Assembly (NCBI GenBank): GCA_951406725.2 | Contig: OX597816.1 | Coordinates: 163,556,001-163,620,000, forward strand | DNA length: 64,000 bases | Reading direction: 5' to 3' | DNA from: Octopus vulgaris | Taxonomy: Eukaryota | In this document: one piece after another, positions 11,420 to 57,930 of the stretch | How positions within the stretch are numbered: position 1 is the first letter of the stretch | Layout: every line of letters starts with the position of its first letter | Notes under the pieces: generated by a model | Told to the model about the DNA's origin: nothing | Databases searched by the model: none | The model's input: the letters and a program-made list of their open reading frames with translations, nothing else | Program-made: the position numbers and the translations under genes

Positions 11420-11781
11420 ATTGATAGAAATGGTAAGACAACAAAAGAAAGAAAGGGACCTCGATATTATGTAAATAGAGGAATTTATCTGTAAATGTAA
11501 CATATGACAATTATTCGGTAGCGATAATAAAACTCCGAGTTTCAGATACGGAGGTGGAAAACCACGCCGCCATCTCTTCAGTTATCTGGCCATCGGAAAA
11601 ATGCTATGAAAAATAACCCGGTCATATTTCATAGCATTTGAAAATAACCCAGGTCATTTTTCATAGCATTTTTCCGATGGCCAGATAACTGAAGAGATGG
11701 CGGCGTGGATTTCCTCATCGGCATCCGAAACTCAGAGTTTTATCATGGCTACCGAATAATTGTCACATATTACATTTACAG
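11420..11781. mobile_element. Foldback element 1 (inverted repeat 11489-11781 plus left tail), Penelope-pLTR-like
   Basis: ~135-bp arms are near-perfect reverse complements; flanked by (TA)n; hammerhead core in each arm. Confidence 0.75.
11681..11748 (+). ncRNA. Type I hammerhead-ribozyme-like motif (mirror copy on - strand at 11526-11589)
   Basis: cca-gataa CTGAAGA [imperfect stem II gatg...catc] c GAAA ctc-a-gag TT ttatc-a-tgg; stem I gataa/ttatc; palindromic stem III. Confidence 0.65.
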
Positions 11782-11800
11782 GTATATATATATATATATA

Positions 11801-12010
11801 TACTCTTTACTTGCTTCAGTCATTTGACTGCAGCCATGCTAGAGCACCGCCTTTTGTCGAGCAAAGCGACCCCAGGATTTATTCTTTGTAAGCCTAGTAC
11901 TTATTCTATCGGGGGGGGGGGGGGACGGCGAATCGGTAAGTTACGGGGACGTAAACACACCACCATCAGTTGTCATGCGATGTTGAGGAGACTAACACAG
12001 ACACACGAAC
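11801..12010 (-). mobile_element. SINE family A, 3' half
   Basis: ttcagtcatttgactgcagccatgctagagcaccgcc...gtaaacacaccaccatc. Confidence 0.85.
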
Positions 12011-12726
12011 ACACACACACGCACATATATATATATGTATGTATATATATTTATATATATATATATATATATATACATACATATATATATATATATATAT
12101 ACGTATACATATATACATATACATATACATATGCATATGCATATATTGGTACAGGACGTCACCAACAGCAAGCAACATGAAACACGAAAACGAAAGAGTT
12201 CATCAAGGAAACAACGAGAGAAACAAATGGAAAGCAAGACAAGTAACATAAAGAACGACCCTTCATCAGTTGTCGGTTGTCTATCTACTCCTCATTTCGA
12301 GCAATAAACGACAATATAAGGCTTCGAAAGACAGTTCCTCCCGCGAACCAAAATAAAATTTGGGATTTGCGGAGGATCAAATTTGGGAACAAAGACAGGA
12401 CAGTGGAGACATACAAGGAAACCGAACGTAAACAAACGTGAAGTGTCGTTAGACCAGAAAAAGGGTACAATAGCGAACGCTGGAGAAATATTTTCTTCGA
12501 CAAGAGAAAAGATACAAGAGAGAGATATAGGATACATCTAGTCTTTAGGACAACCCTGAAAGAAAAGAAAGATGATTACGTGAGGAAAAGTAAGATGGAC
12601 GATGGTCACGTGTGAGAAACGAGAGACAGTAAAGCTGAGAGAGAGAGAGAGAGACGGAGACAGATAGAAAACGGTAAAGGGGAGAAAAAAGGAATATGTG
12701 TGTGTGCTTATTCCACCCATCATCAT

Positions 12727-12893
12727 TTGACAACCGATGTTGGTGTGTTTATGTCTGACGAACTTAGGCGGTTTGGCAAAAGAGACCGATAGTGTAAGTA
12801 CTAGGCTTACAAAGAATAAGTCCTGGAGTCGATTTGTTCGACTAAAGGCGGTGCTCCAGCATGGCCGCAGTGAAATGATTAAAACATGTAAAA
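12727..12893 (+). mobile_element. SINE family A, 3' half
   Basis: ttgacaaccgatgttggtgtgttt...ggcggtgctccagcatggccgcag. Confidence 0.85.
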
Positions 12894-12912
12894 TAAGGGA
12901 AGGATGAAAGAA

Positions 12913-13042
12913 TATTACATACATAATACACACATTATTACATACATAATACATAGTATTACATACATAATACATAGTATTACATACATAATACATAGTA
13001 TTACATACATAATACATAGTATTACATACATAATACATAGTA
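12913..13042. repeat. 21-bp minisatellite (tattacatacataatacatag) x ~6
   Basis: Direct tandem copies. Confidence 0.9.
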
Positions 13043-54379: not shown

Positions 54380-54890
54380 CTTTTACTTGTATCTGTCATC
54401 AGATTCCGGCCATAGCGGGGCACTGCCTTAAGTTTTTTTTTTAGTCAAATGAATCGAGCTCATTTTCTTCTTTTCTTAAACCTAGCACTTTTTCTTTTTG
54501 CCAATCTGCTAAGTTGCAGGGATGTAATCAAACCAACACCGGTTGTCAAGCGGTGGCGAGGAGACAAACGCAGACATAAACATACACACACAAATACATA
54601 CGCATATATATATGTATGTATGTATGTATGTATGTATGTATGTATGTATGTATGTATGTATGTATGTATATATATACATATATGTATATATATATATATA
54701 TATATACATATATGTATATATATATGTGTGTGTGTGTGTATTCGGTTTTTGTCTGCCAATTTCACTCACAAAGCTTTGGTCAGCCAGAGGCTATAGCAGC
54801 AGACACTCTCCCAAATTGTCACACAGTGGGATTGAACTCAGAGCCATATGGTTACGAAGTAGGCTTCTTACCACTTAACCACGCTTGCTC
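54380..54890 (-). mobile_element. SINE family A, old diverged copy
   Basis: cactcacaaagctttggtcagccagaggctatagc; ccggttgtcaagc. Confidence 0.7.
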
Positions 54891-55244
54891 CAATGTGTGT
54901 TTAAACTTTCCCTCAGTCATTCCCATATAGCATTTCAATTGTTACTTTTGTAGGGATTTTATTGATCAACTTCCGTTTGATATATACAATGTCTTTGTCA
55001 TTAGAAAAGCTATTTAGAAGCTGTAGTGTTTCTGCAAAAACGGCTTTTACACGTGGGATTGTGAATTTCTGTGATGTATTTTCATATTGTAACTTGATTT
55101 AAATGTGCGGCTATTGGATAATTTAATATCCCAATAGCGGGGATTAAAATGCTTGTGTGATGTTTTACATGTTGTTGGTACAACTGTAACTTAATTTAGG
55201 TGTGTGTATATATGTCTGTGTACATCTGTACGTGTGACACGTAG

Positions 55245-55550
55245 TTTCAGGTTCAGTTCCATTGTGTGGCACCTCGGGTAAATATCTTCTTCTATAGCCC
55301 CTAGCTCAACAATGTTTTTTTTAATAAGTTTGGTAGATGGAAACTGTGAGGAAGCCTACGCATACATATGTGTGGGTATACATGTCTGTGTGTGTCTGTG
55401 TTTGTGTTTGCCCCCATCTATCGCTTGGTAACCTGTTTCGGTTTGTTTACGTCTAGGTTTTAAAGCAATATAAAACTGAGATGGATTTATTCGACTAATT
55501 CTTTGAAAGTAATGCCCCAGAATAGCCGCAGTCTAATGACTGAAACAAGG
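55245..55550 (+). mobile_element. SINE family A, old diverged copy
   Basis: ggttcagttccattgtgtggcacc...gccgcagtctaatgactgaaacaag. Confidence 0.7.
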
Positions 55551-56829
55551 AAAATAAAAAATAAAAGAGAAAGCCGTCTACTGATGTGAGACGAGGTCGA
55601 CTCTCTTCCTCCCATACGACCGTCGCCATATTAAAACATCATTTATAAAGCGAATGGGGCGCTTGAACCTTGTTTCATATCTGAGTTGATAGAGCGAGAG
55701 TTTTGCACTGGAGAGACATGACACCAAGGTTAATAGGCAGTTAAATAGTTAAGAGTTTGAACTCGTAAATATAGCAGCATCTTATCTTGTGTCTAGGTAA
55801 AGCAGTCAGAAAAAAATGGAGTAGAGAACGATGGACTTATAATATTTATCTTACACTGGTATATTTCATCATTATACCATCTATACGTATCTATATTTCA
55901 AACAGAAAGTTAGTTAAAAGAAGGGGGAGAATGAAAAAAGCAACATCAACGGCTGGATTTTATCAAACGGAAATAGATTTCAACCAACGTGTATGCTGTG
56001 TGCTGTATATGAAATACATATATTTTGACAAACGTTTGGATTCTGTCAGTTACAGAGAATTCGCCAGAATCTATTTACTTTTTAGCTCTTCATTTCTTCT
56101 TTAAAGGCTGCGTTTCCTTCTCTTTACCCCCCCCCCCCCACACACTCTCGTTCTTGTTCTCGCTCTCGTTCTCGTTTACGTTCTCTTCTTACAGTATGAG
56201 CTTTAGCGCTAAAGCTCAGAGGCAAGCAGGGGTTGAGTTTTCTCATGCCCTCCGGTGCCTTGTCGAACTTGCACCGCTAATGTTAATTCTCTGCCAACAC
56301 TTCCATTTTACTTTCGTTTGTTTTTGGTTTTACTTTTTTAAGCTTTTAGGTTGTTTTTTTTTCTTTTTTTAATTTCTTTTTTTTTTTGTTTTTGCAACCT
56401 TAACTGTTTGCTTACGCTCGTTTATTCATATTCTTTAATTTCTTTCCTCTTTCTCTCTTTCGCTCGCTATCTCTTTCTCTTTCAACAAAATTCTCTCTCT
56501 CCTCTCTCTCGCTCCACATACTCTCTATATATATATTTATATATATACGCATCTCTCTCTCTCTCTCTCTCTGTATATATATATATATGTATATATATAA
56601 TATACGAATACATGTATCATATGTATACATATATATGTGTGTAAGTCTGTGTGCGTGTGTGTGTATGTATGTCTATGTATATATATATATATATATATAT
56701 ATATATATATATATATTCACTCTTGTTTTTTCTCGCTTTCTCTCTTTCAATCTTTCTCTCTCTCTTTCTCTCTTTCCCTCTTTCTCTCTCTCTCTCTCTC
56801 TCTCTCTCCATTCATGCTTCCCGCTTCAG

Positions 56830-56847
56830 TTTTGCCTGATCTGACAG
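56830..56847 (+). other. Candidate 18-nt microexon
   Basis: Long pyrimidine tract, tgc, cttcAG|ttttgcctgatctgacag|GTATGA; length divisible by 3. Confidence 0.35.
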
Positions 56848-57395
56848 GTATGACAAGCTACAGATTATTTTGCATAATCACAGATTATCACAGAATAAAC
56901 TGTCGCGAGAGACACAACCAGTTCTATTAATATATTAAGATGGAACGAATAGGAAATGTAAACAAACAAAAACGAAAAAAAAAAAAAGAAGTAAACTTCA
57001 AAATAATAACATATACATACACATATATAATATATATATACATATTCACACGCACACACGCGCACACATACACACACACGCGCGACGGTGGATACTAACG
57101 AGGCGGGAAGAGAAGGGAGATGAAATAATATTTTTGAAAAAATACAGCAAAGAGAAATAAGATTAACTTCTCTTTAGAAATCTTAATCTTAATACTAAAT
57201 CTAATCCTTGATCTGGCATAAATTCCAAAAACAAAAAGAAAAGAAGAAGCTAATAAGAACACAACCCCTGGAATAGACAGAAGGCCACGCATCCATAATT
57301 GAAGGGTATGGCTTCGTCAGCAGCGGGATATCTCCCCAAAATAGGCGCAAGGCCACGTATTTATGATTTAGGAATAGAGTTCTGTCGATGGTCAG

Positions 57396-57930
57396 TACGA
57401 GGTCCGGTCAAAAGGTATCAGGACTGGGCCGACAAATAGAAAAAGCTACAACACATTCTTTCGTTTTGAGATTTGGTTTGCAAGATTCTTTATATGAATT
57501 CGTGTGTTGAAGCATATTTTGTTGTGTCTGGGGAGAGTCATTTTCTTTTTGTACCTTATAATGTAACACACTCACCGGTAAAATTTCCACTTATTTCTTA
57601 TTTTTATTTTCCTAAAATTTTCGTTGGCAGTCAAGACAATTGAAAAGGTTGCAAGACGCAACGAACATTTTAGGAAAATAAAAATAAGAAATAAGTGGAA
57701 ATTTTACCGGTGAGTGTGTTACATCATAAGGCACAAAAAGAAAATGACTCTTCCCAGATACAACAGAATACAACAATTCGGCATATAATCTCCCTTGAAG
57801 TATCCCTGCTTCTGAATCCACGCACTTTATCCAGTGTCGTTTCCATTGACGGAAGCATTCCTGGAACTCATTTTCTAGGGAGCAGCTGCTTCGTCGCATT
57901 CTCTGAGATTTCCTCGACGTCTTGGAATCA
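57396..57930 (-). mobile_element. Mariner 3' remnant (TIR + transposase C-terminus) interrupted by foldback element 3
   Basis: TIR-like tacgaggtccggtcaaaaggtatcaggactg; minus FQDVEEI..FQECFRQWKRHWIKCVDSE.GYFKGD. Confidence 0.75.
57454..57770. mobile_element. Foldback element 3 (inverted repeat 57515-57770 plus left tail)
   Basis: ~112-bp arms in reverse complement; tacaaca duplicated at 57447-57453 and 57769-57775. Confidence 0.75.

Follow-up and report, generated by a model that had tools for sequence, protein, structure and literature searches.

The 64,000-nucleotide (nt) stretch of Octopus vulgaris DNA analysed here (the window, to which all positions refer) contains three foldbacks, labelled E1, E2 and E3, and each of them is, judging from the longer copies to which it aligns, the pseudo-long terminal repeat (pLTR) and tail of a different Penelope-like retroelement. 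It is very probable that each foldback is a single pLTR-plus-tail insertion lacking an open reading frame (ORF), the inverted half of which was made at insertion from one RNA, likely from two adjacent start sites, with the cDNA ends then being joined. More tentatively, and with slightly more doubt than confidence, we propose that Penelope mass-produces run-off copies of about 200 nt, one RNA being copied twice from both nicked strands, that the foldbacks record the transcription start, and that 200-mers keeping position +1 may spread in the manner of short interspersed nuclear elements (SINEs). The elements themselves are ordinary: inverted pLTRs, tails, target-site duplications (TSDs) and opposite-strand hammerhead pairs have all been published.

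Foldbacks E1 to E3 and their parent elements

The window is AT-rich with many microsatellites, and the animal genome searched is 2.8 Gb in size. E1 consists of a 63-bp tail (11420..11482, minus strand) that continues into (TA)n, a tail-side pLTR arm (11483..11618, minus strand) extending to 199 nt from the tail end, a 33-bp junction filler (11619..11651) that is made of re-copied bits of both arm ends and is found in no other copy, and an inverted pLTR arm without a tail (11652..11787, plus strand); 122 of 136 columns match between 11483-11618 and 11652-11787. In E2, a tail of about 44 bp (15818..15861, minus strand), AC-rich and lying within (TA)n, is followed by a tail-side arm (15862..16017, minus strand) and an inverted arm (16031..16182, plus strand), with 136 of 152 columns matching between 15862-16011 and 16031-16182. 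E3 is bounded by a left TSD of 11 to 12 bp (57447..57458, plus strand), which differs by one indel from the right copy (57769..57779, plus strand), and has an AC-rich, 56-bp tail (57459..57514, minus strand) continuing a short frame that is likely an ORF start, a tail-side arm (57515..57626, minus strand) and an inverted arm (57629..57770, plus strand), the first base of which lies 2 nt inside the putative transcription start of the E3 family; the repeat of 57515-57626 and 57659-57770 matches in 106 of 112 columns. The arms are thus 112 to 152 bp long and 89 to 95% matched, the tails lie on the low-coordinate side only, and the best match between any two of the foldbacks is 19 bp long (E value, 0.55). 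These alignments uphold the sequence-only reading in its description of three unrelated insertions that share inverted repeats and a one-sided tail. The foldbacks are far beyond chance, because each belongs to a dispersed family.

Genome searches with the whole elements returned 3660 (E1), 1846 (E2) and 3183 (E3) candidates, first-look figures that are not copy numbers, and exact tail patterns matched at 1347 (E3) and 95 (E1) sites. In the 464 kb surrounding the window, 20 matches lie at about 14 places, and short foldbacks account for five of them. In all three families the pLTR is continuous with an ORF for a reverse transcriptase (RT) with a GIY-YIG endonuclease at the C terminus, which bears out the earlier suggestion that several families with Penelope pLTRs, tails and minimal hammerheads are represented.

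For E1, longer copies (L116 and L111) run into the 3' untranslated region (UTR) and into RT-thumb, linker and GIY-YIG frames. The order in L116 is inverted pLTR, RT-thumb/linker/endonuclease remains, 3' UTR, pLTR and tail, and its linker/endonuclease frame is 78% identical (73/93 amino acids) to the intact 708-amino-acid ORF of a young sister subfamily. In full elements the E1 tail lies immediately upstream of the ORF (pLTR-tail-ORF at locus L271). The young subfamily has intact 708-amino-acid ORFs and shows the inverted-plus-tail layout at 6 to 8 kb, with arms that are 99.9% identical. Its full-length copies are partial tandems (L268, L269, L271, L278 and L279), of which no counterparts were found for E2 or E3. 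Three of them (L268, L269 and L278) are multikilobase head-to-head partial tandems with up to four ORF copies, a tail on one side and a tailless end opposite; the 360-bp elements have the same geometry. In the young subfamily (L268-L279; for example, L270:1917-4040) the hammerhead core reads CCGAAGA, with U4 changed to C, in 24 of 24 copies examined, and the subfamily is apparently an active element with a noncanonical hammerhead core. When the young E1 tail was used as a DNA query, no matches were returned, and our sampling is thus without young short copies. Contigs aligned on the young element showed no joint, and starts are not visible in such contigs.

The E1 parent ORF (P0001) contains RWK, DKT, CxCX5C, CxxC and CxH, lacks CCHH, belongs to a unit of <3 kb and has a (TA)n target; no Pfam or PDB match was found for it. 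The Hydra clade is defined by those motifs, the lack of CCHH, a (TA)n target and a length of <3 kb, and a Hydra-clade element in Octopus has already been published (Craig et al. 2021, PMC8557442). On its motifs we assign the E1 parent to this clade. It resembles Hydra-1_Obim (PMC8557442) by eye, with the same motifs, no CCHH, a unit of about 2.6 kb, 708 compared with 709 amino acids, (TA)n targets and a hammerhead with a palindromic helix III closed by a 1-nt loop; however, the sequences differ visibly, and by the same by-eye judgement the E1 parent is a separate family. Longer E2 copies were found at L119-L121 and L275-L277, L277 matching RVT_1 and GIY-YIG above the cut-off. In the E3 family (L249 and L263) a long, repeat-rich UTR is followed by a CX2-5CxxC linker and by fragments of GIY-YIG/CCHH, and the parent is known from these linker/endonuclease fragments alone. 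The short CX2-5CxxC linker before GIY-YIG is complete in E3 and lacks the last Cys in E2 (by-eye comparison with the text of Fig. S2). By eye, the E2 and E3 parents look Nematis-like.

Junctions and origin of the inverted arm

Because whole-hairpin queries favor copies with similar centers, all frequencies given here come from copies chosen by the tail alone or by exact tail patterns. Earlier counts of inverted arms (11/29, 16/29 and 18/29) were undercounts, since the probe missed short arms. Among 90 tail-picked E3 copies, two rows of which are one tandem place, 61 were foldbacks of 86 to 415 bp, no two of which had the same junction (overlap in 22, a blunt join in 5 and filler in 34), and 38 of 70 E1 copies were foldbacks, again with a different junction in each. 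No inverted arm was detected in the other 29 E3 and 32 E1 copies. The start of the inverted arm is fixed: in 30 of the 38 E1 foldbacks it lies 63 nt from the tail end. Foldbacks in which each arm extends across the ribozyme are few (8 of 61 E3 and 10 of 38 E1). As the centers vary from copy to copy, the inversion arises at each insertion. After exclusion of 19 of the 61 E3 foldbacks with simple-repeat flanks, TSDs of at least 8 nt were present at 27 of 42 foldbacks with nonrepetitive flanks, compared with 8 of 1722 mismatched pairs. The (TA)n surroundings of E1 and E2 make TSDs there inseparable from controls. A one-sided tail, an inverted 5'-truncated copy, and a TSD or microsatellite target are what is expected of endonuclease-containing (EN+) Penelope-like elements, with which the foldbacks also share head-to-head inverted pLTRs, microhomology or palindromic junctions, and TSDs of 8 to 12 bp (PMC3846280, PMC8557442). 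Unlike those elements, most copies here are ORF-less and 150 to 400 bp long, with tails of 44 to 63 bp rather than the usual 30 to 40 bp.

The two arms of a foldback agree at sites that distinguish subfamilies (54/57, 44/50, 42/47 and 31/35, with 41, 24, 24 and 18 expected), and at CpG sites their agreement is at chance level (15/21 and 10/16), which argues that both came from one source element and decayed separately thereafter. Strong homogenization of the arms after insertion was considered and is unsupported, private changes outnumbering shared ones in most copies. In L098, L104, L145 and L187, the arms share 7 to 10 nonreference changes, and some have palindromic centers absent from the family; this possibly reflects other subfamilies or later arm-to-arm repair.

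A mechanism that would produce such insertions can be outlined as follows. The RT/GIY-YIG protein would nick AT-rich DNA on both strands; priming would occur at the tail end from one nick and 44 to 63 nt further in from the other. If the transcript begins within the pLTR, priming at its first pLTR/tail site would leave a template of only about 200 nt, on which the cDNAs would run off or would halt before reaching the capped 5' end. Their joining by microhomology, filler or snap-back would follow, yielding a head-to-head hairpin of about 150 to 400 bp that is not inherited as a unit. In vitro, the protein of the Anolis element Poseidon cuts and extends both strands and has two adjacent internal starts that bracket the tail (Frangieh et al. 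2024, PMC11167929). These two starts match the two fixed outer ends seen here, and its targets are likewise AT-rich; in the available text of that work, the inverted arm and the short run-off products are left unexplained.

Arkhipova et al. have attributed such junctions to self-priming on an antisense template (PMC3846280), and this remains a rival to two priming events. The junctions taken by themselves fit both two priming events and priming plus snap-back, a point that tells against the preference for two start sites, and cDNA self-priming is shared with the snap-back junctions of R2 (PMC11371274). On the other side, 29 of 61 E3 and 26 of 38 E1 foldbacks have an inverted arm that exceeds the tail arm in length, and 21 and 5, respectively, have a shorter one; with an inverted arm that is often the longer one, simple self-priming of the tail-side cDNA is not the whole story. 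In twin priming of L1, too, two primed ends are joined internally and complete 5' ends carry an extra G, but L1 inversions show hardly any overlap, in contrast to the foldbacks, in which one stretch has been copied twice (PMC11702581).

Arm end point and putative transcription start

How far the arms reach from the tail end bears on where the copied RNA began. Among 66 E3 arms reaching 187 nt from the tail end, 57 stop at 187 to 202 nt, where the background rate predicts 13%, with a mode of 16 arms at exactly 200 nt. Long copies show good conservation past this point, so the pile-up is not an alignment edge. The base that follows position 200 is G in 11 of those 16 arms, compared with 12 of 93 other ends (P = 8e-6), and is C in all 23 arms that run on, 19 of which were selected with a C-bearing query. 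A position-by-position scan for G was confounded by homopolymer indels, and the separate control comparison was used instead. With position 200 taken as +1, the start reads CA and AGACG lies at +28 to +32 (57654-57658 in the window copy, in hammerhead loop 2), which is the spacing that applies to a downstream promoter element (DPE). The Penelope pLTR has been described as containing an internal promoter, with a downstream element of the RGACG type (PMC2377424), and in L1 complete copies of a capped RNA are recognizable by an additional G (PMC11702581). Taken together, the E3 ends suggest that a capped transcript, primed at its first pLTR/tail site, was copied into these arms by run-off; run-off from a template of about 200 nt would account for the uniformly small size of the copies. 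A literature search that covered few subscription papers returned nothing on run-off or cap-derived G ends in Penelope insertions.

Several observations weigh against this proposal. Nine of 14 E3 cases with the G read AG before an AG repeat, where slippage could yield the G. The E1 pile-up is broad, with 39 of 56 arms ending at 160 to 199 nt and none of 17 at 200 to 209 nt; all three E1 arms ending at 199 nt carry a G, weak evidence at a position picked afterwards, and no DPE is found at +28 from 199. At 195 nt, where an E1 start had been predicted beforehand, no arm ended in 70 copies, and no clear start emerged for E2 in a shallow sample. Apart from these objections, the idea that short E3 copies form a subfamily of their own (site 192, where long copies have G in 37 of 37) was not adopted: the query that selected 30 of those 37 itself had the G, and in L252 a long inverted arm carries the A variant.

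The same Penelope insertions could also show a pile-up if RT stopped, or microhomology joining were favored, at the AGTC-AA-GACT hairpin upstream of the ribozyme. We regard this as unlikely but as deserving serious weight: the 10-nt hairpin lies at 189 to 198 nt in E3, many ends fall at 187 to 199 nt rather than at 200 nt, and the E1 ends are dispersed over 160 to 199 nt. It does not readily explain why the E3 mode is sharp at exactly 200 nt with few ends beyond it, why nontemplated G is in excess, or why a DPE-like motif lies at the canonical distance, all of which favor run-off at a capped start. That the 5' ends were set by hammerhead self-cleavage of the template is much less likely still. 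A few E3 arms do end at 150 to 164 nt, near the predicted cut at 156/157; however, the stop rate there (0.0115 per nt) equals that at 165 to 186 nt and is one-tenth of that at 187 to 202 nt, E1 shows no rise in ends at 110 to 119 nt, and insertion in vitro did not need cleavage (PMC11167929).

Replication as a unit

The sequence-only reading had taken the foldbacks for replicating hairpin or retrozyme-like elements, a claim that does not survive the finding that centers differ copy by copy while the outer ends are fixed. In favor of nonautonomous hairpins or retrozymes that replicate as whole foldbacks via double-stranded RNA (dsRNA) or circular RNA, whole-hairpin queries do find many copies alike in size and layout, and the predicted hairpins are strong (-166 to -225 kcal/mol). 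Yet even among the 124 foldbacks that were the best whole-hairpin matches there is no common center, only two sharing arm extents, and these with different fillers, and the shared centers and symmetric ends of a replicating hairpin or a transposon are not seen. Many copies lack an inverted arm and the ribozyme is rarely in both arms. Animal non-LTR retrozymes are likewise ORF-less and pLTR-related and carry a type I hammerhead, but they are arranged as head-to-tail tandem units (bioRxiv 10.64898/2026.07.22.740005), whereas the insertions here are single and head to head, with unique junctions. Replication as a unit is therefore highly improbable. At L186 and L360/L361 the E3 pLTR-tail unit is present as short duplicates arranged head to tail, a possible start for retrozyme-like tandems. 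Ordinary miniature inverted-repeat transposable elements (MITEs) of DNA transposons, which the foldbacks resemble in being short, ORF-less inverted repeats of high copy number, can be dismissed almost completely given the asymmetric tail, the variable center and arm length, the continuity with RT/GIY-YIG ORFs and the variable TSDs of 8 to 12 bp.

Hammerhead ribozymes in the arms

An outward-reading hammerhead in each arm had been claimed for all three foldbacks; this holds for E1 and E2 and fails for E3. In E1 (11526..11586, minus strand, in the tail-side arm; 11684..11744, plus strand, in the inverted arm) and E2 (15946-15982 and 16060-16096, respectively), each arm has an outward-reading CUGAAGA...GAAA type I minimal hammerhead with C3-A9, G12-A15.1, helices I and II, a palindromic helix III and a UH cut site. 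A CUGANGA core was sought in the E3 arms of the window and is present in neither. The E3 family instead has a U3-A8 variant of the same fold, with a UUGAAAA core, a 5-bp helix II and a palindromic AAUU. The window copy has a single, decayed hammerhead of this type at the center of the hairpin (57637..57673, plus strand), in which GAAA has become GAAC and helix I is broken, and its tail-side arm carries the hammerhead 3' half alone (57612-57626). The U3-A8 variant was already described by Cervera and de la Peña (2014, PMC4209133), as were the features that our ribozymes share with metazoan minimal hammerheads of Penelope-like elements, namely, type I cores, an extra base before helix II and a palindromic helix III. 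The same authors linked opposite-strand minimal hammerhead pairs about 100 to 700 bp apart to truncated Penelope-like elements (PMC4209133); junctions and end positions, which are analysed here, do not feature in the available text of that study.

The three families retain all 10 core bases in 94/146, 64/91 and 112/151 arms, and core bases change no faster than their neighbors (0.048 and 0.056, 0.042 and 0.089, and 0.028 and 0.063, respectively). These rates are consistent with selection on the source elements and do not show function in the copies. Cleavage by related minimal hammerheads is inefficient and requires dimers or protein (PMC11167929). As the E1 and E2 hammerheads of the two arms lie on opposite strands, each transcript has one sense hammerhead paired to its complement, and a transcribed foldback is predicted to bury its single sense ribozyme within the hairpin. 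Rfam listed no hammerhead family among the 150 listed of 689 matches, nor on E1 or the E2 right arm; on the foldbacks it gave only hairpin-driven microRNA matches below the cut-off, 57459-57770 and 11483-11787 scoring in this way as plant and animal microRNA precursor families.

Elsewhere in the window, other CUGANGA...GAAA candidates were noted at 52600-52630, 43780-43840 and 1400-1424 (minus strand) and at 16745-16800 (plus strand). Those at 52630 and 43840 combine a plausible helix I with the minimal-hammerhead end GAAACGUU and are likely pLTR remnants of other Penelope families. A small inverted repeat at 45752-45839, with arms of about 33 bp and a TA/CA-rich spacer, is unrelated to E1, E2 and E3. 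ORF-like fragments at 62760-63998 (minus strand), 53627-54070 and 25344-26673, including a 413-amino-acid frame at the window end, presumably belong to other non-LTR retrotransposons, whose ORFs they resemble.

Implications

The junctions described here constrain two questions, the origin of the inverted pLTRs of Penelope and the abundance of short copies consisting of a pLTR only, and their pattern points to a single source RNA primed at two sites, with run-off where the capped RNA starts. Foldbacks of this kind are easily mistaken in annotation for MITEs or microRNA hairpins. If the proposal of run-off at a capped start is true, the cap-derived G and the DPE inside a ribozyme loop would make the foldbacks a record of the transcription start, and copies keeping +1 would retain both the internal promoter and the priming site, so that the linear 200-mer may spread as a SINE-like mini-Penelope. 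Thousands of ready-made dsRNA hairpins may then have been seeded in the genome of a member of an animal group with heavy editing. That such hairpins might act as dsRNA substrates of ADAR or in small interfering RNA production, as the sequence-only reading suggested, is plausible from their predicted folding.

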